A stretch of DNA of 62,929 nt, the filler included, from Theionarchaea archaeon (GTDB taxonomy: Archaea > Methanobacteriota_B > Thermococci > Methanofastidiosales > SZ-28-30), in the NCBI GenBank assembly GCA_018992565.1. It is 6 parts of 6 records of this genome, joined end to end, with 100 filler letters (N's around TTAATTAATTAA, not from the genome) between each part and the next. Parts side by side here need not be neighbours in the genome. Positions count along the whole stretch, not along the records: positions 1 to 12,571 come from JACVGW010000078.1; 5 more parts are not named here. One strand, given 5' to 3'. Below are positions 1-18,123 of the stretch, one piece after another (position 1 is the first letter of the stretch; each line of letters opens with the position of its first letter). The notes under the pieces are model-generated. The model was not told where the DNA came from. It saw nothing but the letters and a program-made list of their open reading frames with translations, and made no database searches. The position numbers were made by a program, and so were the translations under genes.

Positions 1-417
1 GCAAAGAGTATTGGGATAATGGAAGACTGGCATCCCATCACTGATGTAGATCTCTCAGATGTGACACTGAAGAGAGGTACTGTGGTGTTTCTCAATGCCT
101 GTGATTCAGGATTACACAAGTATACGAAAGGCGGCTACTTTCAAGGACTATCGGCAGTCTTCTTGAAGAATGGAGCACATGCAGTCATATCTTCGTTAAT
201 TCCCCTTTTTGATGACGAATCGAAGGATTTTGCCATCAGATTTTATAAGAACCTCCTAGAAACTCATTCTGTATCCCGCTCTCTGAGAGAAGCTAGAATC
301 GCCATCAGAGACATGTACAAAGACCAGATACATTGGATACCCTATGTTCACTACGGATCGCCCTTTTTGGAGATAGATCCCACGTCTAAATCGATGCAAA
401 AACCAGGGCTCCCATGA
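1..417 (+). CDS. CHAT (caspase-like) domain protein, C-terminal part; 5' end lies outside the window
   Basis: VVFLNACDSG catalytic-Cys motif, followed by GLSAVFLKNGA, FAIRFYKNL, SLREAR and WIPYVHYG, all typical of the CHAT C-terminal half. The frame is open back to base 1. Confidence 0.85.
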   Translation, partial: AKSIGIMEDWHPITDVDLSDVTLKRGTVVFLNACDSGLHKYTKGGYFQGLSAVFLKNGAHAVISSLIPLFDDESKDFAIRFYKNLLETHSVSRSLREARIAIRDMYKDQIHWIPYVHYGSPFLEIDPTSKSMQKPGLP

Positions 418-907
418 TCCCCGTGCAGACTATTGCGAAGAGAAGAAGTGCTGTTGCTGTCAAGAGGTATTTGTATTTTTTCCTGTTGATTTTGTCAGTA
501 GCCTGGAGAGCCTCGAATGTCTGCATTATCAGATGGGGCACGCTCAATTCCGCTTCGCCATTCAACACCTTCTGGATAAATTCCTCAGATTGAACTGCAG
601 GAGCTCTCTTGTACATGGTGATCCTGAAAGAGCAGAGAGCACAAATAGAAGAAAGGACATAAGAGAGGAATACCAGGACTACAAACCATTTCATGTATGA
701 GAAGTAGGGAGAAAGGTACAGATACTCCCTGGAACTTTCATCTCGAGCTACAAAGGTTATCAGGACTGCCTGAATGCTGTTGATGATACCATCAAATTCC
801 AGAAGATTATGTGCTCTGCCCGTAAGATATTCTGTCCGATGTCTAGCATCAGCAAATTGAGAGAGAATGATCTCATAGAGCCATGCTTCATGAATCTCTT
901 CTTTCAT
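386..907 (-). CDS. Three-TM membrane protein resembling Pycsar effector/DUF5706-type proteins
   Basis: N-terminal helix RAHNLL with TM1, a second TM (WFVVLVFLSYVLSSICALCSF), and a C-terminal INRKKYKYLL followed by TM3. Confidence 0.5.
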   Translation of the reverse strand: MKEEIHEAWLYEIILSQFADARHRTEYLTGRAHNLLEFDGIINSIQAVLITFVARDESSREYLYLSPYFSYMKWFVVLVFLSYVLSSICALCSFRITMYKRAPAVQSEEFIQKVLNGEAELSVPHLIMQTFEALQATDKINRKKYKYLLTATALLLFAIVCTGIMGALVFASI

Positions 908-911
908 GATT

Positions 912-1037
912 CTACTCTGGCATTCTCACTGAATCTACGTAGTAGCACCAGCCTTCGTCATAGTAGCAGCACTTTTGATATCCCCTCATGGAAAGTGGGC
1001 ATTCTTTACCATCAATAACTCTGCATCTATTAACCAT
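912..1037 (-). CDS. Unannotated 41-aa Cys-rich microprotein (MVNRCRVIDGKECPLSMRGYQKCCYYDEGWCYYVDSVRMPE)
   Basis: Translated by hand. GGAAGTGA Shine-Dalgarno lies 4 nt before the ATG at 1037. The TAG at 912-914 is 4 nt before the ATG of the 3TM gene, so the ORF fills the intergenic gap. Confidence 0.65.
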   Translation of the reverse strand: MVNRCRVIDGKECPLSMRGYQKCCYYDEGWCYYVDSVRMPE

Positions 1038-1048
1038 CTAGTCACTTC

Positions 1049-3265
1049 CTATGCATTGAACCCCTCCAGAACCTTGTGAACCCTTAAGAATCTGGATATT
1101 TCATGTTGAGTTCTATGAAAAGAAATTTCCGTGAGATTTCCACAATTCAACTGGCACACACGTATGGGGCTGGCCTCAAATGGTAGCACATCTTTTTCCA
1201 ACATTCCTCCCAACCTAATGCTCTGGAATTCAACGGGGAGGAGAATAAGTCTCCAAGCATGCGTATGGTTCTGTTCCTGATCCTTTAGAGTGAGTTCCAG
1301 CAGACCTGTCAGGTAAGAGCACATATTCTTATGCAGTCTCTTGACTGTAATTTCGTCCAAGATCTGCTTTGTGGGAGGTAATACAGGACCGATAGTTTCA
1401 ATATAATCTCCAATCTTGGCAAAATTGACTCCACCGCCCCTATATATCTTCCTCACTTCGTCAGTTCCCCTTTCTTCTGTTTTTTCGCAGTAATATCCCC
1501 CATCGCCAAAAGAATTGGAGTATTCTCGCCATATTTCACTGCACTCTCGACCTTTCCATGCTTTGAGACAATCTGCCTGTGCCGTATCAATGAACTTCGA
1601 AAATAGGCACATGTCACAATGAGGTTTGTACCACTGAGCGAGTGCAAGGGAGAGATAAACCTGTCGCAACTCGACATACTGATGGCCTGTGTTCACCTCA
1701 TCTACAACGAGAGGGAGAACGAGGTTCTTTTCGACTTCCATTGCATACTGCCCATATTCTTTTGCTGCCTCATCAAGGGACTCTTCACATTCCGAAGACA
1801 GAGAAGTGGGCTGGAATCTGATGTCGTAAGTTGAGTACTCAGATACTGGATCAGAATAAATGTCAAGAATCGCTTCTTCAATGTAGATCTCATGTTCATC
1901 TCCATACGCTGTAATTGTCCCTGGGACTATCCAGTATCTTGTTGCTGCACCAAAGAAAACGTTATCAACACTCTGTATTTCAGGATATTCCTTCATGCAT
2001 TCTATTACCAGCTCTTCTCTTTTTTCCTCCAGAAGCGCCCAGTACGTGTCTCCAATCTCACTCTCACAGGGATTCTCGTACCTGCAGAAATCCTTCTTCA
2101 TCTGGAGGTCAGCCTCCAACATGATTCTCCCTATCATTGTGGAGCACATGCTGCTGGTAGCAATTCTTTCAGGCTCTTCTGGGTGGAGGTTGACCCAGAA
2201 CGTATCATCGGAGAGACTGAGACCTGTCAGGAAATAGACAAGCGATGCTGCTTCGCTGGTTGCAAGATCCGCCACCATCTGGCCAGGTTCTGCTGCTCTT
2301 GTTCTTAGAGTGTACTGAAATCTGTAATCAGTCCCTCCTTGTGTGGTGGTTGCAGCTTCTGAAATGTGAATGAGTTGGCCTGGGACATATCTCTCCCTCT
2401 CTCCTTCTTGATTCAGTGTGCTTCGAATGTCTAGTAACCTGACCGCTGGATCCAAGAAATAGCAGTAGTTGGCACGGTTTGAGAAGCTCTTGAGTGGCTC
2501 AAGTCTCAGAGTTCGAGGGAATCCAGATGCTGATTCCTCTTCCAGCCAGTCATCTATCGTGCGTGTTCCTTTGCTTAATGAATAGGATACATCTGCCCAG
2601 TCAACATTCTCAGTAACTCCTGCACCGTCCGTTCCCCCATGTGGCGGCAGGTCTTTGCCGCCCATCTCCAGTGCTGAGATGAGTGCTTCTTCCGCGAGGT
2701 TCATGGGCATACCATCTGCTGTGGTTGCCGCAATCCCTGGTTCGGGAAAAAATGTATGAGTCCCGCATTCAAGAAAAACGTGCAATTCTCCCTGAATGCC
2801 CTCTTCAGTATATCTCCCGATGACCAGCCACCCGTACTGCCAGTAGACAGCCACCATATCCCTGGTAGACCTGTTCAAGAGAACTGTCACGCCTTCAACA
2901 TCCGCACTATAGAGAATGTCCTCACTAAAGAGCAGAAAATAATGAGAGACATCCCATATATCACCAGAGTGGTCTGTGAACTCATCAGTGATGCAGACAG
3001 GTTCGAACTCTGTCAGTTTCTCCTTGCTATCAAAATGAAGTATCACAGAGGGAACCTTCGCCGTTGGGGAAAGAATAGTAACACAACCTGGCGAAATAAG
3101 ACTCACAATGAGCAGAGCAATGACGATGATCCTCCCGGTTTGTCCCGCACACTTTCCACGTCCGGTCCCCCTCTTTTGATGGACCATGGGGCATCCCATT
3201 ACTGATAGGGTTACCCTCACTGAAGCAAAGTTCACTTCAGATCCCTCCTCACTCAGCAGTACCAT
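1049..3265 (-). CDS. Large putative lipoprotein with a conserved FWVNL..GRIMLEADLQMKKD (DUF1598-like) core; true start may be 3199 or 3187
   Basis: 738-aa ORF with a hydrophobic signal ending ISPGC, plus motifs FWVNLHP, EADLQMKKD, RYWIVP, LRQVYLSLALAQWYK and GGVNF. Confidence 0.65.
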   Translation of the reverse strand: MVLLSEEGSEVNFASVRVTLSVMGCPMVHQKRGTGRGKCAGQTGRIIVIALLIVSLISPGCVTILSPTAKVPSVILHFDSKEKLTEFEPVCITDEFTDHSGDIWDVSHYFLLFSEDILYSADVEGVTVLLNRSTRDMVAVYWQYGWLVIGRYTEEGIQGELHVFLECGTHTFFPEPGIAATTADGMPMNLAEEALISALEMGGKDLPPHGGTDGAGVTENVDWADVSYSLSKGTRTIDDWLEEESASGFPRTLRLEPLKSFSNRANYCYFLDPAVRLLDIRSTLNQEGERERYVPGQLIHISEAATTTQGGTDYRFQYTLRTRAAEPGQMVADLATSEAASLVYFLTGLSLSDDTFWVNLHPEEPERIATSSMCSTMIGRIMLEADLQMKKDFCRYENPCESEIGDTYWALLEEKREELVIECMKEYPEIQSVDNVFFGAATRYWIVPGTITAYGDEHEIYIEEAILDIYSDPVSEYSTYDIRFQPTSLSSECEESLDEAAKEYGQYAMEVEKNLVLPLVVDEVNTGHQYVELRQVYLSLALAQWYKPHCDMCLFSKFIDTAQADCLKAWKGRECSEIWREYSNSFGDGGYYCEKTEERGTDEVRKIYRGGGVNFAKIGDYIETIGPVLPPTKQILDEITVKRLHKNMCSYLTGLLELTLKDQEQNHTHAWRLILLPVEFQSIRLGGMLEKDVLPFEASPIRVCQLNCGNLTEISFHRTQHEISRFLRVHKVLEGFNA

Positions 3266-3368
3266 TACCTATAACAGTCAGTTCCTCTTCAGAGAACCTA
3301 TCTATATAAACGTTTGTGCCACATGATACAAGTGACAAGATTTTGGAGCCTGGACTGGCCACGCAGGC

Positions 3369-4301
3369 TTGGCTATCCACAGGAATGACACAACCTCAAC
3401 AGGAAGAGGTGATACTATAGGTCTGGTGTTTGACATCAAGCGATTTGCAGTCCATGATGGACCCGGCATCCGTACCACGGTCTTTCTCAAGGGATGCCCT
3501 CTTACCTGTGGCTGGTGTCACAATCCGGAAGGGAAAAATCCACATATAGAATTGAGCTGGCGAAAAGAACGGTGCACTGGCTGCGGGAGCTGCCAGGATG
3601 CCTGTCCCAACAATGCTATTCACTATAGAGACCGCCCAGAATTGAATAAGACTCTGTGTGACCTTTGCGGAGCGTGTGTAGACGTCTGCCCATCTGAGGC
3701 TTTAGAACTGGTGGGAACATCAATGACAGAAGTCCAAGTCCTCGACTACATAAAGAAAGACATTCCCTTTTACGACCAATCCCGGGGAGGGGCAACTTTT
3801 TCAGGAGGAGAGCCTCTGGCACAGCCCGAATTCCTGTACAGCCTGCTGAAAGCCTGTAAGAAACAGGAAATCCACACCACGGTAGACACATGTGGATATG
3901 CACCTCAAGAAGACCTCCTGAAGATTACTGAGTATACAGACCTGTTCCTGTATGACATAAAGGCTGTATCTGACAAGATTCACCTGAGGGAGACGGGTGT
4001 CTCAAACAGAATCATTTTACAGAACCTGGGAATCCTCGCTCCCGACAAGGTTATTGCCAGAATCCCCTTTATCCCCGGAGTGAATGATTCTATTAAAGAA
4101 ATTGAGGAGCTTGCCAACCTGATTTCTTCGCATCGTATTGACAGAGTTACCCTCCTGCCGTATCATAGAGGGGGCGTAGAAAAAGCTAAAAGACTGGTTG
4201 CTGTAGAAAGTGTAGTATTTGAACCTCCTTCATCAGATACAATACAGAAAGCCCTGGCAGTACTGCAGGACTATGGATTGAAGGCTCAGGTAGGAGGATG
4301 A
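3369..4301 (+). CDS. Glycyl-radical enzyme activating protein (radical SAM with ferredoxin insert)
   Basis: HDGPGIRTTVFLKGCPLTCGWCHNPE, two CxxCxxCxxxCP motifs and FSGGEP; directly upstream of the glycyl-radical enzyme. Confidence 0.95.
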   Translation: MAIHRNDTTSTGRGDTIGLVFDIKRFAVHDGPGIRTTVFLKGCPLTCGWCHNPEGKNPHIELSWRKERCTGCGSCQDACPNNAIHYRDRPELNKTLCDLCGACVDVCPSEALELVGTSMTEVQVLDYIKKDIPFYDQSRGGATFSGGEPLAQPEFLYSLLKACKKQEIHTTVDTCGYAPQEDLLKITEYTDLFLYDIKAVSDKIHLRETGVSNRIILQNLGILAPDKVIARIPFIPGVNDSIKEIEELANLISSHRIDRVTLLPYHRGGVEKAKRLVAVESVVFEPPSSDTIQKALAVLQDYGLKAQVGG

Positions 4302-4302
4302 T

Positions 4303-6209
4303 ATGTTATCAGAGAGAGTCAAGAACCTAAGGGAAGAGAGTATTACCACAAAGCCTTATATTTCTGCAGAGAGAGCTGAATTACTTACCGATTTCTATAT
4401 GAATGAACAGGAGTTGCATCCTATCCCTGTCACTCGTGCTCTGGCATTCAGGTACATCCTAAAGAACAAAAGCATGTACATCGGAGATGGAGAACTCATT
4501 GTAGGAGAGAGAGGGCCTGCTCCGCGGGCAACACCTACCTATCCTGAACTATGCTGCCATACCATACAGGACTTGGAGGTTCTCTCATCAAGGGGGAAAA
4601 CGCAATTCGAGGTTTCAGACGATGTCAAGAGACTCTACAAAGAAAAGATCATACCCTTCTGGACTAAGAAGACTATGCGGGAACGGGTATTCCGGTCAGT
4701 ATCACCTCGGTGGAAGAATGCGTTCGATGCAGGAGTGTTTACTGAATTCATGGAGCAAAGAGCCCCCGGTCATGCCATCCTGGACAATAAAATATACTGG
4801 AAAGGGCTCCTGGATTTCAAAGAAGAAATTGAAGATGCACTGAGTAACCTGGACTACTACACGGACGGTGAGGCCTACTGGAAGGAACAGGAACTCAAAG
4901 CCATGACCATTGTAGCTGATGCACTCATGGATTTTGCAGGAAGACATGCTGAAAAAGCTCGGGAATTGGCAGAAGAGGAAAAGGATCCCCGGAGAACCCA
5001 GGAGCTTGAAATGATTGGCGAGGTTTGCTCTCATGTACCTGCACATCGACCCCGCACGTTCTGGGAAGCTCTTCAAATGTACTGGTTCATCCACCTGGGA
5101 GTGATTACAGAACTAAACGTGTGGGATTCTTTCAATCCAGGAAGACTCGATCAGCATTTATACCCTTTTTACAAAGAGGATCTGGAAAATAATGTAATTA
5201 CGGGAGAATTTGCCAGGGAACTGCTGGAGTGCTTCTGGATCAAGGTCAATAACCAGCCAGCCCCACCCAAGGTAGATGTCACTGAAGAACAGAGTGGGAC
5301 CTACCAGGATTTTGCCTTAATCAATGTTGGAGGGGTCACAAAAGACGGCAACGACGCAGTAAACGAACTCTCCTATGTGATCCTGGACATCATTGAAGAA
5401 ATGCGGCTCATCCAGCCCAGTTCCTGCATCCAGCTCTCAAGCAAGAGTGAGGAGAGATTCCTGAAAAGGGCCCTCCGTATCGTGAAGACTGGGTTTGGCC
5501 AGCCTTCTATCTTTAATACAGATGTCATTATACAGGAATTCTTGCGCATGGGGAAATCAGTTGAAGATGCCCGCGATGGTGGACCCAGTGGATGTGTCAC
5601 TGTCAGTGCCTTCGGGAAGGAAAGCTGCATTCTCACAGGGTATATGAACTGGCCCAGAATCCTTGAAATCACATTGAATAACGGAGTTGATCCTCAAACG
5701 GGGAACCTCATAGGCATAAGAACGGGAGACCCTGCTCAGTTTGCCTCTTTTGACCAGATGATGGAAGCGTATAAAACGCAGTTGAAGTATTTCGTGGATT
5801 TAAAGATTAAGCATAACAATATCATTGAGCGCCTGTATGCAGAGTGGATGCCTGCACCTTTTCTGTCGTTACTGGTTGATGACTGTATCAAGAAGGGGAA
5901 AGACTACCATAATGGAGGCCCACGGTATAATTCTACCTATATTCAGGGAGTGGGCATCGGTACAGCAACAGATTCGCTTACTGCCGTGAAGTACTGCGTA
6001 TTTGATGAGAACGTCATGACCATGCATGAACTACTGGATAGCCTGAGCAGAAATTTCGAAGGATGTGAAAGAGTGAAGCACCTGCTTGTGCATGCTCCCA
6101 AGTACGGGAATGATCTTGAGTATGCTGATAGTATAGCCAGGGACATCTTTGAGATGTACTTCGACATGGTGGATGGACGACCCAACACCAAAGGGGGGGA
6201 GTACCGGGT
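4303..6209 (+). CDS. hypD: Glycyl-radical enzyme, trans-4-hydroxy-L-proline dehydratase (HypD)-like; 3' part lost in a scaffold gap
   Basis: FTEFMEQRAPGH, ELNVWD..PGRLDQ, NNQPAPPKV, SGC and PKYGND match the HypD clade. The glycyl loop is not sequenced, and the catalytic Glu is replaced by Thr (see findings). Confidence 0.8.
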
Positions 6210-6309
6210 NNNNNNNNNNNNNNNNNNNNNNNNNNNNNNNNNNNNNNNNNNNNNNNNNNNNNNNNNNNNNNNNNNNNNNNNNNNNNNNNNNNNNNNNNNN
6301 NNNNNNNNN

Positions 6310-6945
6310 CACCCCCTGGTAAGACCACTGTATGGATTTCTAAAGGAATGTAATGACAGCCCTCTCACAAGAGAGGTTCTGGACTGTGGTGCAGGAGGAT
6401 CCCGCCCGCCTCTTACTCTTTTCTATGAGCACGGGTACAGTGTGTATGGGATTGACATAACTCCCCAGCAAGTTGAGCTTGCCCAGGAATATTGCATGAA
6501 AGCCCACATCACCCTGCCCATTATGCTGGGAGACGCGCGACACATACCCTTCAAGGATGAATCAATGAGTTTCATCTATTCTGTGAACACCCTGTGCCAT
6601 CTATCGAAGAGAGATACTGCCGCTGTAATGCAGGAGATAGAACGAGTTCTCAGGAAAGAGGGACTCTGTTTCGTCAATTTTGTCTCTGTAGATGATTGTG
6701 GGTTTGGGCGCGGGAAAGAAGTCTCCGTGGGCGAATTTATCCAGGAAGAAGAATGGTACTCTGGCATCAAAAAAGAAGGACATATATGCAGCTATTACGA
6801 AGATTCTGAACCAGATCCATACTTTGAACCCTTCGAAATTCTTCGGAAGGAAAAGAGAATTACTGAACTTGTCATAGAGAAAACTCACCCTGAAGGTGGC
6901 GACTGGCAAATGGCTGATATATGCTATACAGCACGGAAACTGTGA
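6310..6945 (+). CDS. Class I SAM-dependent methyltransferase, 5'-truncated by the gap
   Basis: VLDCGAGG, YGIDIT, GDARHIPF and LRKEGLCFVNF. Confidence 0.85.
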   Translation, partial: HPLVRPLYGFLKECNDSPLTREVLDCGAGGSRPPLTLFYEHGYSVYGIDITPQQVELAQEYCMKAHITLPIMLGDARHIPFKDESMSFIYSVNTLCHLSKRDTAAVMQEIERVLRKEGLCFVNFVSVDDCGFGRGKEVSVGEFIQEEEWYSGIKKEGHICSYYEDSEPDPYFEPFEILRKEKRITELVIEKTHPEGGDWQMADICYTARKL

Positions 6946-7053
6946 CTGAGATTCCATTAATTCAACAGATAGTGTATTGTTCTTGTTCATGACTCAGTGG
7001 AGATGGTTGCAAAAGGTTTTTAGCTGCATTGTCAGAAGTAATGCGGTGATTGC

Positions 7054-8280
7054 ATGGCCAGGTACCGAGAGTATAATCCGCAGAGGGACAGAGAAAGTGT
7101 TCATCGCATCTGGAGAGAAATAGGCTGGCTGCAAGAGGGTCAGGAAGAAGCTGCTGATACCCTTATTGGCGGAGGTCGCGCCGTAGTTGCAGAGGTTCAA
7201 GGTGAAGCGGAATGTCTCGTTGCCACAGTTCCTGGCTCTATAAGGTACGTAAAAGATGATCTTCCTTTTTCAAACGTGGCAAGTGTGGGAACCAGCAGAA
7301 TCGCTCGAAAGCAGGGACTGGCAAAAGGATTGACTGCTGCAGCCATTGCACATGATGCAGCCCAGGGCAAAGCAGTATGCGGATTGGGTATGTTTGAACA
7401 GGGATTTTACAACATGCTAGGGTTTGGTACTGGGAGCTATGAGAAATGGGCAGCTCTAGACCCCAGGAGCATACGAGTGAAGGCAGAGGCAGGTATTCCT
7501 TCTCGGCTGACTGTGAAAGACTGGGAGAAGGTCTACCAATCCCGTCTCAACAGGGTGAGGGGCCATGGTGCCTGTAACATTCATGCTCCAGAATGCACAC
7601 GGGGAGAAATGGCATGGCTGAAGAACAGCTTTGGTCTGGGTTACTTCAGGAATGGACAGCTCACTCACCATATCTGGTTCAACACAGAGAAAGTGGAACG
7701 GGGACCATATAATGTGGAATGGATGGCATATCAAACGTACCAGCAGTTCTGTGAGCTCATGGCATTGATTAAGACCCTGGAAGACCAGGTCCGTCTGGTG
7801 ACATTACGAGAACCTCCCTCTATCCAGGTACAGGATCTTCTTGAGAGCCCCTTCAGAATCCGCCAGCTGACAGAAAAATCTGCATATGAAAATCGTATGC
7901 AGGCAAACGCCTACTGGCAGATGAGAATACTAGACCTTGAAGAATGCATGAAAAAAACTCATCTCCCCCATGGTGAAGTCACTTTCAACTTGGTGCTTTC
8001 AGATCCGATAGAGAGCTTAGTTCCCGCTGATGCAGCATGGAAAGGAATATCAGGAAACTACAGAGTCAGGCTGGGATCCTGTTCCTTTGCAGAAGAGGGA
8101 AAAGATGAAACACTCCCTACGTTGAAAGCTTCAGTGGGTGCATTTACCCGCCTCTGGTTGGGAGTCCGCCCTGCATCCAGTCTTGCAGCCACAGATGACG
8201 TACATGGGGCCCAAGAACTTCTGGAAGACCTGGATCAGATCGTGTGCGTACCTGAACCTCACCCTGATTGGGATTTCTAG
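7054..8280 (+). CDS. Eis-like GNAT acetyltransferase
   Basis: ARKQGLA and FYNMLGFG acetyl-CoA motifs in a 408-aa protein with an Eis-like layout. Confidence 0.75.
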   Translation: MARYREYNPQRDRESVHRIWREIGWLQEGQEEAADTLIGGGRAVVAEVQGEAECLVATVPGSIRYVKDDLPFSNVASVGTSRIARKQGLAKGLTAAAIAHDAAQGKAVCGLGMFEQGFYNMLGFGTGSYEKWAALDPRSIRVKAEAGIPSRLTVKDWEKVYQSRLNRVRGHGACNIHAPECTRGEMAWLKNSFGLGYFRNGQLTHHIWFNTEKVERGPYNVEWMAYQTYQQFCELMALIKTLEDQVRLVTLREPPSIQVQDLLESPFRIRQLTEKSAYENRMQANAYWQMRILDLEECMKKTHLPHGEVTFNLVLSDPIESLVPADAAWKGISGNYRVRLGSCSFAEEGKDETLPTLKASVGAFTRLWLGVRPASSLAATDDVHGAQELLEDLDQIVCVPEPHPDWDF

Positions 8281-8402
8281 GAGTACACCAGTTTCAGTAT
8301 TCTGCTTTTCCTGGAATCCTCATGTCCTGAAAGGTTCATTGCCAATTCTCTCACACCAGTCCCACATTCCCATTCAGGTTTTCTGCACTATGGTATCCAC
8401 TG

Positions 8403-8749
8403 TTAGAACTTCAACATTGTCTCTCGTATCTGACGAAAGAGAAATCTTTGGAATATGGCTGCTGCCATTGCAATCAATCCAGTCAAAATCCCGAAAAGGA
8501 CCAGTAGTGGCACAACAATGGGTATCAGAATATGAAAATGAGTGCAACCAGGCAGAATCCGAGAAAGACGGCCTGAAATGCTCTCTTTGGAGACAATTCT
8601 GAAAGGATTCCTGTGCACAGTCCGAAAGCCAGCGGAAGGGTCCAACTCCATATGCCCACGATGTCATCCAGTCCGTAGAACCACAGGAACCACCCCAGTA
8701 TGACTGCCACAATCCATGAAACCATGTACCATTTTGATTCCGTATTCAC
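8403..8749 (-). pseudogene. Small multi-TM membrane protein split by a one-base frameshift near 8525
   Basis: The hydrophobic ORF at 8749-8525 continues in another frame as LIPIVVPLLVLFGILTGLIAMAAAIF. Confidence 0.55.
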
Positions 8750-9203
8750 CTGCGTGATTCATAGTATCCGCCACTTCTTTCTGTATCATCTTCTTCACTG
8801 TTATTCACTAAGGTTACTGCTCTCCGGCTCTACATGACTAAGCGAGTATCATCATGGAGTTGTGAGATTTCCTGTACCAATCTGCCCATATTATGACGCA
8901 ATTCATATTATTTCTGCTAAGAGAAAGATAACCTTATATAGATACCCCAATTGTGAAAAGTAATATCTTTCGTTAAATATTTGGATATGAAATGTGGTAA
9001 TATATAATTCTGGAGATTAATATGAAATGTAATAAGATTTTCTTTATATAAAATTTAATTCAGTTCCATAAATGTACTGAAATCAGATATAAAGTTATAG
9101 AACATGTATAATGACGAAATGTTTATATATATGGAATAAATAATAATATAAGAGAAATAAACATGCTGCTAAAAGCAGGGCAAAAGAGACAGGAGGTGAC
9201 ATA

Positions 9204-10775
9204 GTGAATAAATGTCGAAAGGTATTAGTGCTAATTACTGCTACAGTACTCTGCTTCTCACTCTATTCTGTTAGTGCAGACCCGCAGAAAGCTACTCTTC
9301 ACATTCAGACCTTTGGTTACCCGGGCAGAGATCTCTTGAAACTCAATGTTGACATTTCTGGTGAAGACTCTGACTTCTTGTACATCCAGGTCACTCCTGG
9401 CGTAATTGCCAGAGTCTCCAGAGAGATAAACATTGAAAATCTGCCTGTGGTGCAGATAGATGATACAGTCTTCGGAATTCCCAAGACATATTTGACTGAA
9501 GTGGGACCCAGTGAATTTGTTGCCGTGGTACCTAATGATGTTGCCAAGATGAAATGGTCTATCAGAGACAAGATTAAGGACATGAAGGGAAATAGTGTCG
9601 TCCGTGTTTTGGTATGGTTTAAAGATCCGTCCGCACATGCTGCGTTGGAGAAATTTGGTGCTGTGTACTACTCCTTCTTGAGTGGTATGGGGGCCTCAGT
9701 GGACATCCGGGTTTCCAAGATCAAAGCGCTCTCCGAAGAGAGCACAATCATGTTTGTGGAAGCTGAAGGTGTAGCCCACATTACGCTGTCTCAGAGTATT
9801 CCTTTGATCAATGCAGATGATTGCTGGGCTGCAGGATACGATGGTACTGGCACCAAAATCTGCATCATTGATACAGGGATTGATGACAATCACTGTGATT
9901 TCCCAGGAACCTATCCAAGTGGAAAAATCATTGCTTGGGCAGACTACATTGGATCAGGCTCTGCACCCTATGACGATCACGGGCATGGAACGCACTGCTC
10001 CTCTATTGCTGCAGGCGCGTATTCACCATATGGAGTGGCACCAGGTGCATCACTAATGGGGGCAAAGGTGTGCAACTCTGGTGGATCATGCCCAGATACA
10101 GCCATTATCCAGGGCATTGACTTTGGAGTAGCCCAAGATGCAGACGTGGAAAGCATGTCGCTGGGTGGTGCTGGCAGTGATGGAACAAGTGCTCTGGCCA
10201 AAGAAGCCAACTGGGCTGTGGATCAGGGAGTGGTAGTAGTATGTGCTGCAGGAAATGACGGTCCAACATGCTGTACCGTAAGCACTCCAGGAGATGCCAC
10301 CAATGTCATTACTGTGGGGGCCTCAGATAAGTCAGATGCTCTGGCCAGCTTCTCCTCCAGGGGACCCACAACAGATGACAGAATAAAGCCAGATATCACA
10401 GCGCCAGGAGTCTCCATATATGCTGCCTATGCAGGGACTTCGTGCAGTGATGTGGGCATGTCTGGCACGTCCATGGCCACCCCACACATTGCAGGAGTTG
10501 CTGCGTTGATGCTGGATGCCAATAGCACAGCAACACCTGTGCAGATTAAGAACTGCATGGGTGCCAGCGCAGTTGACAAGGGCAATGTCAATAAAGACTG
10601 CCTATGGGGCTGGGGTCGCGTGGATGCCTACGGAGCAGTACAACAAGTAATGAGTAACCCGGGCGTTTCTCCACCACCAGATGGCGAGTGCGGCTGTGAA
10701 TGTGGCGGTATTTGTCTTGGAACAGCACTAATATCAGTACTTATCGGATTCGGAATAGCTGTCAGGAAGAGGTAA
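9204..10775 (+). CDS. Secreted S8 subtilisin-like serine protease with a C-terminal Cys-containing membrane anchor
   Basis: Signal peptide, IIDTG, HGTH, AAGN and GTSMATP; C-terminus GICLGT-TM-RKR; GGAGGTGA Shine-Dalgarno before the GTG. Confidence 0.95.
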   Translation: MNKCRKVLVLITATVLCFSLYSVSADPQKATLHIQTFGYPGRDLLKLNVDISGEDSDFLYIQVTPGVIARVSREINIENLPVVQIDDTVFGIPKTYLTEVGPSEFVAVVPNDVAKMKWSIRDKIKDMKGNSVVRVLVWFKDPSAHAALEKFGAVYYSFLSGMGASVDIRVSKIKALSEESTIMFVEAEGVAHITLSQSIPLINADDCWAAGYDGTGTKICIIDTGIDDNHCDFPGTYPSGKIIAWADYIGSGSAPYDDHGHGTHCSSIAAGAYSPYGVAPGASLMGAKVCNSGGSCPDTAIIQGIDFGVAQDADVESMSLGGAGSDGTSALAKEANWAVDQGVVVVCAAGNDGPTCCTVSTPGDATNVITVGASDKSDALASFSSRGPTTDDRIKPDITAPGVSIYAAYAGTSCSDVGMSGTSMATPHIAGVAALMLDANSTATPVQIKNCMGASAVDKGNVNKDCLWGWGRVDAYGAVQQVMSNPGVSPPPDGECGCECGGICLGTALISVLIGFGIAVRKR

Positions 10776-10780
10776 ACCTC

Positions 10781-10800
10781 TTCCCTTTTCTTCTTTTTTG
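10781..10800 (+). terminator. Oligo-T archaeal terminator after the S8 protease
   Basis: T-rich tract immediately after the stop codon. Confidence 0.5.
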
Positions 10801-11044
10801 TGTTACAGAATACTGCATAGATTCTTGTTAAAGATCTTTGCCAGGTCTGAACCTCCCTCTGTTTGAACTTCTCACGTGCTGGGGCAGTGTCTTATGCTGC
10901 ACATGTATCGGTAGATATGCAGCGAGACATGTCTTCTTGATTCTTCAAGAAACCTTATAAATGAACTGACCACAGTATATCCTGTATTCAGACAGTGATA
11001 AAAACCACAAGATTGAGGTCGTTGTTTTGAAAAGGAGGTATACC

Positions 11045-11604
11045 ATGTCTAGCACACAACAAGCACGTGTTGAATTAGTGGAGCACTCTCCTCCTGAAAC
11101 ACCCATGGAAGGAGGAAAAGTGCCAGGACGTGCAGAAGAAGTAATCCATACTGAACATCTGACCAAGTACTATGGAACGGTGAGAGGAATTGAAGATTTC
11201 ACGCTTACCGTTAATAAAGGCGAGATTTTTGGATTTTTAGGCCCCAATGGAGCAGGGAAGACAACAACAATACGGTTATGCCTCGGTCTCATCTCAAAGA
11301 CGTCCGGGAGTATTACAATATTCGGGCTGGATTCACATANNNNNNNNNNNNNNNNNNNNNNNNNNNNNNNNNNNNNNNNNNNNNNNNNNNNNNNNNNNNN
11401 NNNNNNNNNNNNNNNNNNNNNNNNNNNNNNNNNNNNNNNATAAGAGTGGATAACAAGAGGCTCATCCTCACCATAAATGAGAATATAGACAGTGTCATTA
11501 AAGCAGTGGCCAATCACAGTATTGTGAATATGAACTTGAAAACGTACAGCCTGGAAGAGCTCTTCTTACGGTACTACAAAGATACAGGAAGAGGTGAGGA
11601 ATAA
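11045..11604 (+). CDS. ABC-2 transporter ATP-binding protein (middle lost in the gap at 11340-11439)
   Basis: GFLGPNGAGKTTT before the gap and SLEELFLRYY after it. Confidence 0.85.
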
Positions 11605-12571
11605 TGGTTGGCAATGTAATCCTCATGGAGTTCAAGTCAGGATGGAAAGGGTTCTTCATTTTTGCCTTCCTCATTTTACTGATATCAGCAGGAATGCCTC
11701 AGCTGTTTCCGTCATACAGGGATTCACTCATTACAGAACTGGAAGGTGCCCAAAATGTCAGTCTTACCGTCCCAGAAGAGGGCGAGATCACTCTGGCATG
11801 GAAGCCTGTGGAAGGGGCCAGTTACCTTGTCCTTCAGGATACTCGTTCCAGCATGGTAACTGCACAGCCCATCTACAGAGGTGAGGAGACCCGAATTACG
11901 CTCCCCGGGAATGGTGGAGAAGACAGGTACTACGCTGTAATGGCAGTAGTTGATGATACTGAGATACTGGTTGGTATTGCCACAACTGCAGAAATGAAAG
12001 ATCCTCTGGAGGACTACATGAATAACCCCATCTATGCGGGATTCACAGGGGGGAGACACATGAATTTGCTTGAGGCAAAGGGCTTCATAGTCGTGGAGTT
12101 CTTCAGTTTCTGGTGGATACTTGCGGGGTTGTTCATCGCATATGTGTCAGTGTCGACAATTACAGGAGATTTTGAAGGGAAAAGAATGGATTTGATATTC
12201 TCCACACCAATCTCAAGGGAACGCTACATTCTGGAGAAGTTCACAGCCATGAGTGTGATGTCGCTGGTCATCATCCTGGTGGCTGCTACAGGTCTTATAA
12301 GCAGTATTGCGGCTATGGAACTGAGCAGTGAATTTGACAGTAAAACAGCGATTTCAGCTTTGATAGGATGTCTCCCACTTCTTATGACGCTTGCTGCCTT
12401 TGGAATGCTGACTGCAGTTATATTCCAGAAGACACGGGTCGGGATAGGTGTTGCCTTTGCCTTCGTTATCGGAGGGTTCCTTCTAAACACATTTGGTGGA
12501 TATTCAGAGAGCCTGGAATGGATGAAATCTCTGAGTATTATGAACTACTGGGACTATTACTCTGTAATATT
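11604..12571 (+). CDS. ABC-2 permease with an inserted extracellular domain; 3'-truncated at contig end
   Basis: MDLIFSTPISRERYILEKF ABC-2 motif and multiple TM segments. Confidence 0.85.
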
Positions 12572-15274: not shown

Positions 15275-16374
15275 ATTCATAGTGTCTGCTCAAGGAAGGA
15301 TTCGAAATGCTCCTGGCCTTCAAGAGAACAGAGAAGATAGCTCATTTTCCATGGCGACAGCTGGATTCAATGATCAATGATCCGTTTCTTCTCTAGGATT
15401 GATCATCAAGGCACACGGCATGTAAACTGCAACGGGACTCATCAGTTGCTTGCTCTTCTTGTTCCCCCACAGTACGTGCTATAGAGTCTCCACTCTGGCG
15501 AGCTGTCACTTTCTTCGATGGGAATGCCCTGCAACCCAAGAAATAGACATCAGTTCTTTTTCTTGCTGGGGAAGAGGGCGAATTTTGAAGACATTTTTTC
15601 TTCCCAATCCTTTAATTTCGTACTCCAGGTTTCCAATGTTATCACCTCTATTCGGCTATTCCACAACTTGTACGCCAAGTCTGGATTCATACTCGATAAC
15701 CACAACAGGAGATTCGCAGTTATGGACACTGTGTCCCCTTTGAGGGAACACCTGTTCAACATCCATTTCCGTGGTTCTCTTGCAAACTGTCTCTATTGGA
15801 CAATCCAGTTCAAGAATCTCCTTACTATGCTCCACCAGTTCACTTTGATATTCAGAAACAAATTTCAAGTAGCTGAGACAGGGTTATGCCTCTTTTGTTC
15901 AAATGAAATTTGACTATCTTTTCTCCTCAGTTCCTTTCCCTATCAACGCCCTGCCTTATGAAGCTTTCTATTGGGCTACCGTGTTCCACACTTGAGAAAT
16001 GAATGCGGGAAGGAAAGCACAACCCAAACGAAAAATCAAAGCGATAAGAAAACCTGAAGGAACTGTTTCATCACGAATATTCCCTGTAATCGAACATGCC
16101 CTCCGTCCCATTGATTAAATTCCCCTTTCCTGTCAAATATTTCTATAGTTCTTCGAAATAGACATATGGGATAATATAAAGGAAATAGATCGAGTCAAAT
16201 TCATATGCAAGAATAAGAGAGGCAATACTCAATTTTCGTACACGTCAAGAGTATCTGTTGTATCATCTGCAGGATAAATCTCCTTTAATTCCATATTTAT
16301 AAAATTTATAGATCAAAGTACTTATTAGCCCATGTCTAATTGTGCATGTAACAAAGAAGAATGAGGTGAGAAAT

Positions 16375-18123
16375 TTGAAAGGTAAAAAGGCATTAATACT
16401 CGTCCTTGCACTGGTCGTGAGCCTGGTGGGTTCTACAGCTTTTTCTGAGAACGATAGCTTAAGTGTGGACTTCACGTTTGAGATAGTCCAGATGAACCCA
16501 TGTGTGACATGCGGTGAATGCATGGTAGCTGACACTCAGATTTGGAGTGAACCCGGAGCGCCATTGGTGCCCTACAGATCTGTTACTATTCTGCTTCCCC
16601 AAGGTGCAGAACTGGAGGATATCAAGGTGAGGCATGGACAACCCATCGTTCAGAAGGGGATTGAACTCCCATGGGGCCAGCCACCCTGCATACACGGTGA
16701 AAATCTCCTGAAAGCTGGGATGAACGAGACAATCTACGGCTCTGACAACATGTACCCCAGTGAGATATTCCAAGTTGTTGGTGTAGAATATCTCAAGGGA
16801 TGTGCCATATTGAACGTCAACCTGTTTCCTGTTCAGTACATGCCACAATCTGGAGCAGTTAGATTCTATCATGAAATGACTGTAAAAGTACAATTGGGAA
16901 AGGGTACGAAGAACAAGCTGTATAGAGGGCTGGCTTCCGACAAGGCAGAAGTTGCGAGTCTCGTATGCAATCCTGATGTCCTGACGACATACGAAGATGT
17001 GCCAGCACCTTTGACAACAGAAGAATACATCATCATCACCAACGATACCATGCAGTCAACGTTCCAGACATTACGTGCCTGGAAGAGCAATTTTGTGATC
17101 AACCCAACTGTGTACACAGTGAGCTGGATCAGTTCCAACTACGCTGGTACTGACATCCAGATGAAGATGAGAAATCTCATTATTGACAAGTACACCAACA
17201 ATGGTTGTAAGTATGTCCTTCTGGGTGGAGATGTTGCTGCTGTCCCCTACAGAGGATTCTACGTATCCACTGGCGGATACACTGATTCCGATATGCTTGC
17301 TGACATGTACTTTGGTCACCTGGATGGCAGTCACAACTCAGATGGTGACAGCAACTATGGTGAGATCACTGATGGTGTCGACTTCTATGCAGAAGTTGCT
17401 GTGGGACGAGCTCCATGTCAATCTGTAACAGAGGCTCAGAACTTCGTCAACAAGGTCATTGCCTACGAGCAAGCTGCGAAACCCGAGAGAGTCTTGCTTC
17501 ACCAATCCAGAGTGTCTCCTGGAAACAGCCCTGATTCTCGATGCTTGGCCTACAGATCTGACGACTACATCCCGGGTGACATCATCATTGACTATATCTA
17601 TGAAGAGAATGGCACCATCACGAAAGCAGTGTGGATCCAGTATTGGGCTCAAAACCCCTTGATAGTAGTACATGTGGGGCTTGGAAATACAAATTGCTAC
17701 CTCCTCAACTACGAAGTTGGTGGTACGGTAACCTGGTACAATTCAGACGTAGCCAGCCTAACCAATACCTTTTGGCCCTGGCATACCAGTCTTTCGAGTC
17801 TCACAGGACAGATTGAAGCTAACGACTGCCTTGGAGAAGCCTACGTCATGGACCCTGACAATGGTGCTATTGCTTGTCTAATGAACGACAACTACGCTTG
17901 GTACAGCATGAATAATGCTTGCATGTATTCTGGTGAGTTCATAGAAATGATGATCAGAGCCTTTTTCAGCGATGGAGAGGAAAGACTTGGCGACATGCTG
18001 AACAAGGCAAAAAGTTATTTAGCATCTTCAGCCCAGTGCAATTCAACGTACAGATGGTGCTTTTATGAGATCAACCTGATTGGAGATCCTGAATCACCCT
18101 GTCTGACCGAGAGAGAGCAATAA
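16375..18123 (+). CDS. Secreted gingipain-like C25 peptidase family protein (propeptide plus C25 domain), probably catalytically inactive
   Basis: GAPLVP propeptide, YIIIT, YVLLGGD..VP, AVGRAP and NLIGDP; GAGGTGA Shine-Dalgarno before the TTG. Confidence 0.85.
   Translation: MKGKKALILVLALVVSLVGSTAFSENDSLSVDFTFEIVQMNPCVTCGECMVADTQIWSEPGAPLVPYRSVTILLPQGAELEDIKVRHGQPIVQKGIELPWGQPPCIHGENLLKAGMNETIYGSDNMYPSEIFQVVGVEYLKGCAILNVNLFPVQYMPQSGAVRFYHEMTVKVQLGKGTKNKLYRGLASDKAEVASLVCNPDVLTTYEDVPAPLTTEEYIIITNDTMQSTFQTLRAWKSNFVINPTVYTVSWISSNYAGTDIQMKMRNLIIDKYTNNGCKYVLLGGDVAAVPYRGFYVSTGGYTDSDMLADMYFGHLDGSHNSDGDSNYGEITDGVDFYAEVAVGRAPCQSVTEAQNFVNKVIAYEQAAKPERVLLHQSRVSPGNSPDSRCLAYRSDDYIPGDIIIDYIYEENGTITKAVWIQYWAQNPLIVVHVGLGNTNCYLLNYEVGGTVTWYNSDVASLTNTFWPWHTSLSSLTGQIEANDCLGEAYVMDPDNGAIACLMNDNYAWYSMNNACMYSGEFIEMMIRAFFSDGEERLGDMLNKAKSYLASSAQCNSTYRWCFYEINLIGDPESPCLTEREQ

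Follow-up and report, generated by a model that had tools for sequence, protein, structure and literature searches.

The locus and its HypD-family enzyme

The window analyzed here is the whole stretch of 62,929 nucleotides, made of six parts of a draft Theionarchaea archaeon genome (GCA_018992565.1), and its subject is a plus-strand gene at 4303..6209 that encodes a HypD-family glycyl radical enzyme with a threonine in place of the glutamate of the Cys loop. Enzymes with this threonine (Cys loop CVT) are called Thr-type below, and those that keep the glutamate of the Cys-X-Glu (CXE) motif (CVE) are called Glu-type or canonical. The open reading frame (ORF) starts at 4303, with an ATG one base past the stop codon of an upstream activase gene, and stays open for 635 codons plus 2 bases up to 6209. 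There it runs into a scaffold gap of 100 Ns (6210..6309) that hides the C terminus of the enzyme, with Thr641 and the glycyl loop, as well as the start of the next gene. At 6209 it is the assembly that breaks off, not the gene, and about 151 codons fall outside the readable part. Residues 3 to 635 match PF02901, the PFL-like ten-stranded barrel domain, with 748.7 bits. An 880-amino-acid ORF at 4303-6945 was rejected as an artifact, since the 100 Ns happen to preserve the frame and so join the enzyme to a downstream S-adenosylmethionine (SAM) methyltransferase; a gene caller reading across the Ns at 6210-6309 would report a false enzyme-methyltransferase fusion protein.

Among all solved structures, the best match was HypD of C. 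difficile (6vxc_A; HMMER, E 6.2e-247, 824 bits), followed by glycerol dehydratase with 394 bits and, much lower, by MasD (185.5 bits) and TutD (165.2 bits). Query residues 4 to 635 align on residues 27 to 659 of the 6vxc_A chain (632 residues), with an identity of about 60% and no gap near the Cys loop. Bases 5587-5601 read AGT GGA TGT GTC ACT, or S-G-C-V-T, and with GGPSGCVTVSAFGKES aligned on GGTSGCVETGCFGKEA of HypD, Thr433 (ACT, 5599..5601) occupies the place of Glu436. Two residues earlier lies Cys431 (TGT, 5593..5595), the counterpart of HypD Cys434 and the predicted thiyl radical cysteine. On the HypD equivalog model NF043068, the 635-residue fragment scored 972.4 bits and the full-length Theionarchaeal protein P0004 scored 1247 (cut-off 1100); Thr-type proteins ranged from 1139 to 1264 bits, versus 1455 for the canonical member L075. 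The nearest named proteins are Theionarchaeal: P0004 is 99% identical (4 mismatches in 635), and the enzyme of locus L002 is 81% identical.

Other residues of the HypD active site are in place. They include His157 (CAT, 4771..4773, in APGH; HypD His160) and Asp275 (GAT, 5125..5127, in WD; HypD Asp278, the acid/base proposed in PMC7077986), both invariant in the two clades described below. The segment Ser331-Gly-Thr-Tyr-Gln-Asp336-Phe337 (SGTYQDF, 5293..5313) aligns with HypD Ser334 through Asp339-Phe340, and Tyr447 (TAT, 5641..5643, in TGY) with the carboxylate-binding Tyr450. Phe149, Arg153, and Lys323 are also kept (HypD Phe152, Arg156, and Lys326). Within SGTYQDF, Gln335 is a clade-specific state (HypD Thr338), and just upstream Gln330 stands in place of HypD Glu333. 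Thr641 (HypD Thr645) lies beyond the gap and is present both in P0004 and in independent contigs that run past 6209. The glycyl loop (RVxG, PF01228) falls inside the gap and outside the window; P0004 has RVAGYS at 758-763, with Gly761 as the radical glycine.

The activase gene (3369..4301, plus strand) encodes a radical SAM protein with two ferredoxin-type clusters (Radical_SAM and Fer4 families) and a CPLTCGWC (CX3CX2C) motif. It scored 315.3 bits on TIGR02494 (cut-off 174.35) and 339.7 bits on the HypD-activase model NF043069, under its cut-off of 425. The first-pass annotation had described an archaeal HypD-like glycyl radical enzyme, a Glu-to-Thr replacement in the Cys loop, retained PGH His, WD Asp, SxTYxDF, and TGY Tyr, and an intact activase gene; each of these descriptions was confirmed.

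The threonine codon in independent assemblies

Near-identical copies of the stretch were found in 20 sequencing runs from 6 studies, covering marine, estuarine, mangrove, and soil samples. Contigs from runs X3, X5, X6, and X19, which belong to four studies, span 5300-6209 and show 0 to 4 differences apiece, never at 5599-5601. All four extend in frame past 6209, where they encode VNLLPTTVHIY as in P0004, a protein with the same Cys loop as the window enzyme. Because the contigs agree at the threonine codon and continue past the break, the codon can be taken as genuine and the gene as complete in nature. The first-pass expectation that a sequencing slip was unlikely is thus upheld by independent sequence. 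Its proposal to close the gap and confirm the glycyl loop was answered in part, as the contigs carry the reading frame onward and the loop itself is seen in relatives only.

Distribution of the threonine-type enzyme

The threonine is shared widely. Among the 120 best database matches, the Cys loop reads GCVT in 117 and GCVE in 3. When these matches were combined with those of a second, Asgard-centered profile search, 182 of 186 close cluster representatives had Thr at the Glu436 site and the remaining 4 had Glu, with no other residue observed, and the RVAGYS glycyl loop was present in 185 of the 186. Close homologues therefore do not all carry CVE; had they done so, this would, by the first-pass annotation's own criterion, have spoken against it. 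A library of representatives at 50% identity gave no resolution between the two HypD types, since it placed both under one representative (P0124, 53% identical). In contigs from one genome per species, the best 80 loci comprised 38 CVT, 41 CVE, and 1 that was unreadable. Archaeal labels on the CVT loci were Theionarchaea, Bathyarchaeota, and Thor-, Heimdall-, Hermod-, and Promethearchaeota, and 15 of the 38 CVT loci bore bacterial labels (Synergistota, Bipolaricaulota, Latescibacterota, WOR-3, Gemmatimonadota, Acidobacteriota, Aminicenantes, Planctomycetota, and others); the Thr-type clade is therefore not an archaeal one.

A census of Asgard archaea identified a HypD-family gene in 206 of 400 species genomes, in two identity bands corresponding to the Thr-type and canonical Glu-type enzymes. 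The best 30 genes comprised 28 CVT and 2 CVE in a CVT background, and all 20 genes sampled from the band of 56 to 61% identity were canonical CVE. The Thr-type clade was present in about a quarter of the sampled Asgard species genomes, and among the census rows listed, none of the genomes carried both types. These data correct the impression, given by 23 of 23 archaeal loci among the best 80 matches to a Thr-type query, that archaeal copies are all Thr-type, which was an artifact of selection. The first-pass suggestion of a CVT residue conserved in an archaeal subclade thus holds for its conservation and fails for its restriction to archaea, as bacteria carry CVT and Asgard archaea have both forms.

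Three side observations concern these sequences. The handles of the Asgard genomes in the two identity bands fall in separate number runs, a pattern suggesting that each type is passed on within lineages. Asgard genome G213 carries, on contig C2, two canonical CVE copies of HypD 3 kb apart (L139 and L140, at 4534-6876 and 9812-12154), one of them with an in-frame TAA. Finally, P0138, a protein of a different glycyl radical enzyme family that is 40% identical, has GCVT in its Cys loop as well, and given this protein the CXE glutamate may have been lost in other eliminase-like families too.

Two sister clades and the positions that separate them

A maximum-likelihood tree with 80 rows set the canonical CVE rows apart as one side of a branch with support of 100, and it placed the Thr-type enzyme outside the CVE clade, that is, on the side opposite canonical HypD (C. 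difficile HypD was absent from the tree, and its CVE-type states were taken from the HMMER alignment). The free search returned the CVT rows as a basal grade, and a tree constrained to hold them as one clade was better by 13 log-likelihood units (p-AU 0.69). Because the one-clade tree has the better likelihood, the simplest reading is that Thr-type and canonical HypD are two sister clades, with no claim made about the ancestral state. Members of the same clade share 67% identity on average, and members of different clades 59%.

Twelve positions separate the clades and were reexamined in 210 Thr-type rows (some redundant), 53 canonical rows, and 6 rows in which Thr had switched to Glu. Perfect splits, given as Thr-type/canonical in HypD numbering, occur at Ala/Thr161, Gln/Glu333, Cys/Asn-Met-Ser378, Pro/Thr-Ala-Ser-Cys431, Thr/Glu436, Ser/Gly438, and Cys(Thr)/Tyr445. 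Near-perfect splits occur at Phe/Tyr144, Gln/Thr338, and Trp/Leu453 (Ile in C. difficile), and positions 616 and 647 are weaker. Eight of the 12 lie no more than 3 residues from one of the twelve published active-site residues (hypergeometric p of 5e-7, with 65 such positions in 786). The eleven other published active-site residues of HypD, together with the radical glycine, were invariant in 34 Thr-type, 38 Glu-type, and 3 switched rows, and the same held in the 210, 53, and 6 rows except for one gap each at Thr641 and the radical glycine. By this comparison the pocket around the carboxylate, amine, and ring is unchanged, and the leaving-group side and its second shell are rebuilt, at a net cost of two carboxylates. 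The switch from Thr to Glu took place at least three independent times, and in each case all other clade-specific positions remain Thr-type. The switched groups, which include P0324 and P0092, are each 79 to 86% identical to their Thr-type neighbors, and each switch takes at least two base changes.

Genomic neighborhood

Both types share operon partners. An activase gene adjoins the enzyme gene in 20 of 33 Thr-type loci and in 31 of 37 Glu-type loci. The gene for a prolidase-type M24 peptidase (AMP_N plus Peptidase_M24) lies directly downstream of the enzyme in 3 Thr-type loci and beside the gene pair in 7 Glu-type loci (5 downstream, 2 upstream), and oligopeptide ATP-binding cassette (ABC) transporter genes occur near some loci of both types. 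GntR regulators were found in 6 Thr-type loci and 1 Glu-type locus, and sigma-54 activators in 8 Glu-type loci. Comparison of the neighbors of both types showed no further conserved genes beyond the activase, regulators, M24 peptidase, and oligopeptide ABC genes. None of 11 Thr-type genomes tested carried a Glu-type paralogue. Gene order varies in some lineages: in Thorarchaeota-type loci (L019, L022, L024, L026, L027, L031, and L034), the enzyme gene lies between an RNA methyltransferase gene and the rpL3-rpL4-rpL2 operon with no adjacent activase, and in Bathyarchaeota of a deep-branching Thr-type group (L041, L064, and L074), the order is reversed, with the enzyme first and the activase second.

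Downstream of the gap in the window lies a plus-strand gene for a class-I SAM methyltransferase (6310..6945; Methyltransf_11, 70.1 bits) that lacks about 38 N-terminal codons. The related locus L002 shows the order activase, 786-codon enzyme, and methyltransferase, the last of which (ORF 10358-11107) is 75% identical to its window counterpart. From L002, the real length of the gap at 6210-6309 is estimated at about 560 bases. In L002 the methyltransferase gene and the stop of the enzyme gene overlap by 4 bases, an arrangement that points to cotranslation of the two, and the methyltransferase gene at 6310-6945 is probably cotranscribed with the enzyme gene in Theionarchaea. This SAM methyltransferase did not adjoin the enzyme in any lineage other than Theionarchaea among the loci compared.

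The contig that carries the enzyme makes up window bases 1-12571 only, and the M19 and M24 peptidases, YcaO, and AFOR genes further along are on other contigs and are not physical neighbors. A secreted-type subtilase (S8) is encoded near the enzyme in both Theionarchaea loci (window 9204-10775; L002 11561-13132), and a C25 peptidase gene lies further along the window at 16342-18123; together, the two peptidases fit a peptide-degrading lifestyle.

Proposed function

With modest confidence, we read the Thr-type enzyme as a putative hydroxyproline dehydratase that works without the CXE glutamate, with trans-4-hydroxy-L-proline or one of its close stereoisomers as the possible substrate. A role shared with HypD is favored because the two types share operon partners, because no Glu-type paralogue was present in the 11 genomes, and because Thr has changed to Glu at least three times. 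Also counted for it are the wide margin by which HypD leads the solved structures, the score of full-length P0004 above the equivalog cut-off, the invariance of the other active-site residues, and the restriction of the Glu436 site to Thr or Glu. The E436Q, H160Q, D278N, D339N, S334A, and F340A variants of HypD were all inactive according to the structure paper (PMC7077986), in which Asp278 is the proposed acid/base and Glu436 acts with His160 to position the 4-hydroxyl. The first-pass annotation had taken the glutamate as the essential base; on this account it is essential but is not assigned as the base, and the assignment of acid/base catalysis to Asp278 is counted in favor of a dehydratase free of the glutamate.

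Under the proposed mechanism, the adjacent activase would generate a glycyl radical on Gly761, a residue seen only in the 99%-identical P0004, from which the radical would move to Cys431. The resulting thiyl radical may then abstract hydrogen from C5 of bound hydroxyproline. The substrate would be gripped at its carboxylate by Ser331, Tyr447, and Thr641, at its amine by Asp275 and, via water, Asp336, and at its ring by Phe337 and Phe149. Asp275 would carry a proton from the amine to the leaving 4-hydroxyl, which may be held by His157 and the hydroxyl of Thr433, a task performed in C. difficile HypD by Glu436 with His160. Departure of water and return of hydrogen to C4 would release pyrroline-5-carboxylate. 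About ten covarying neighbors (e.g., Thr161 to Ala, Glu333 to Gln, Gly438 to Ser, and Tyr445 to Cys) could represent a rebuilt second shell that dispenses with the carboxylate. The roles of all named residues are predicted by homology; their presence and invariance across the clade are observed.

Several points weigh against a glutamate-free hydroxyproline dehydratase. The clustering of clade-specific positions at the active site would also be expected from a change of substrate, and the Thr-type clade shows a net loss of two acidic residues (Glu333 and Glu436). Neither proC nor a proline-racemase-family gene was found in this 88%-complete genome, which contains a single, generic aldehyde dehydrogenase, and the usual product pathway is not evident there. 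Of five chromosomes of Thr-type metagenome-assembled genomes (MAGs), one had proC above the cut-off, a comparison that is confounded by taxonomy. In addition, the E436Q variant of C. difficile HypD is inactive (PMC7077986), and a 2026 review states that CXE is kept by all characterized eliminases and isomerases (PMC13450708). Data from the cultured Asgard archaeon MK-D1 count neither way. This organism expresses DSAG12_03102, a gene annotated as HypD that may be of either type (Imachi 2020, supplementary table, PMC7015854), and does not grow on L-hydroxyproline (PMC11316595); the MK-D1 protein was absent among the 120 listed matches of the profile search.

Alternative explanations

Alternatively, the Thr-type clade may act on a different substrate or catalyze a different reaction, with the proline-shaped pocket kept and the C4 or leaving-group side rebuilt for another hydroxyproline isomer, a 4-substituted proline, or a reaction other than dehydration. 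We regard this as possible but rather unlikely. The sole direct ligand that differs is the one contacting the leaving hydroxyl, around ten more fixed differences between the clades cluster at the active site, and the threonine is conserved as strictly as the glutamate is in the other clade. The loss of activity in E436Q HypD (PMC7077986) points the same way, as do the absence of proC from 5 of the 6 Thr-type genomes examined and, in Theionarchaea, the overlap of a lineage-specific methyltransferase gene with that of the enzyme. However, the residues that bind the carboxylate, amine, and ring are all invariant, and both types have the same operon partners, among them a prolidase-type peptidase that would free proline or hydroxyproline from dipeptides. 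The two types are also mutually exclusive in genomes, although enzymes of different substrates often co-occur, and three natural switches from Thr to Glu took place without any other clade-specific change. A broader view is likewise rather unlikely: the clade would be a glycyl radical enzyme of separate function, widespread in sediment archaea (Theionarchaea, Bathyarchaeia, and Asgard) and candidate bacterial phyla under the annotation HypD in public databases, that binds a proline-ring substrate as HypD does but catalyzes a reaction in which the CXE carboxylate is neither required nor tolerated. The first-pass proposal of a new glycyl radical chemistry was not borne out; the operon partners, the lack of co-occurrence, and the Thr-to-Glu switches lean toward the role of HypD; the covarying positions centered on the active site nevertheless leave room for a changed substrate or mechanism.

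It is very improbable that the protein is a catalytically dead or decaying pseudo-enzyme. In favor of this, the enzyme has lost an essential residue and the window holds only part of its gene, but the break is an assembly gap across which four independent contigs continue in frame. The Cys loop, the glycyl loop (185 of 186), and the binding residues are moreover strictly conserved in archaea and bacteria, and the cognate activase lies alongside.

An X-succinate-synthase-like enzyme is less probable still. X-succinate synthases are not known to have a glutamate after the cysteine, a trait that the Thr-type enzymes would share. Hermodarchaeota also carry Thr-type HypD-like genes (L012 and L030). 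A paper on this lineage names Asgard glycyl radical enzymes, which may or may not include the Thr-type ones, alkyl/benzylsuccinate synthases (Ass/Bss) on about 30% identity (PMC8163825). Against such an assignment, MasD and TutD reach 185.5 and 165.2 bits, versus 824 for HypD, and the polar HypD pocket is intact. The weakest alternative, an ACT codon created by sequencing or assembly error, has nothing in its favor beyond the location of the gene in a draft MAG and is practically eliminated by the contigs of four studies without a variant at 5599-5601, by the same threonine in P0004 and 182 of 186 relatives, and by the at least two base changes that the genetic code requires between Glu and Thr.

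Significance

The CXE glutamate counts as a defining feature of glycyl radical eliminases, and it is missing here from a large natural clade under strict conservation, carried by the dominant organisms of anoxic marine sediments. Either these enzymes can do without the glutamate, or the Thr-type branch performs different chemistry. If hydroxyproline is still dehydrated by the Thr-type enzymes, the role now accepted for the glutamate needs revision, and the covarying positions reveal the way in which the site makes up for its loss; the three natural Thr-to-Glu revertants are ready controls. No paper describing a Glu-less HypD clade was found in the literature searched, which did not cover subscription journals, and all characterized PFL-like enzymes are bacterial, according to the 2026 review (PMC13450708). 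New in this work are the bacterial membership of the clade, its sister placement, the covarying positions, the shared partners, the mutual exclusivity of the two types, the natural revertants, and the occurrence of both types in Asgard archaea.

Comparison with known glycyl radical enzymes

The closest characterized relative is C. difficile HypD. The Thr-type enzyme shares with it 632 alignable residues, the length and glycyl loop (as seen in the full-length orthologue), the kind of activase, and, in some loci, a prolidase-type partner. The residues in common are the cysteine, His160, Asp278, Asp339, Ser334, Phe340, Phe152, Tyr450, Thr645, Arg156, and Lys326. It differs in the replacement of Glu436 by Thr, in nine further clade-specific states between positions 144 and 453, and in its membership in a separate sister clade.

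The N-methyl-cis-4-hydroxyproline dehydratases HpyG and HpzG (8ID1 and 8IOF) are likewise glycyl radical eliminases of hydroxyproline derivatives and belong to the next tier, but with 369 and 333 bits they are much more distant, and they keep CXE (PMC13450708). Another glycyl radical enzyme, acting on a hydroxyproline isomer, reaches 272.6 bits only and keeps CXE as well; it illustrates that the scaffold can host other hydroxyproline chemistry. The B12-independent glycerol dehydratase (1R8W, 394.5 bits) has another substrate and uses the CXE glutamate as its base. It is nonetheless an eliminase in which a histidine protonates the leaving hydroxyl, according to the same review (PMC13450708), and thus offers a precedent for the role proposed here for His157.

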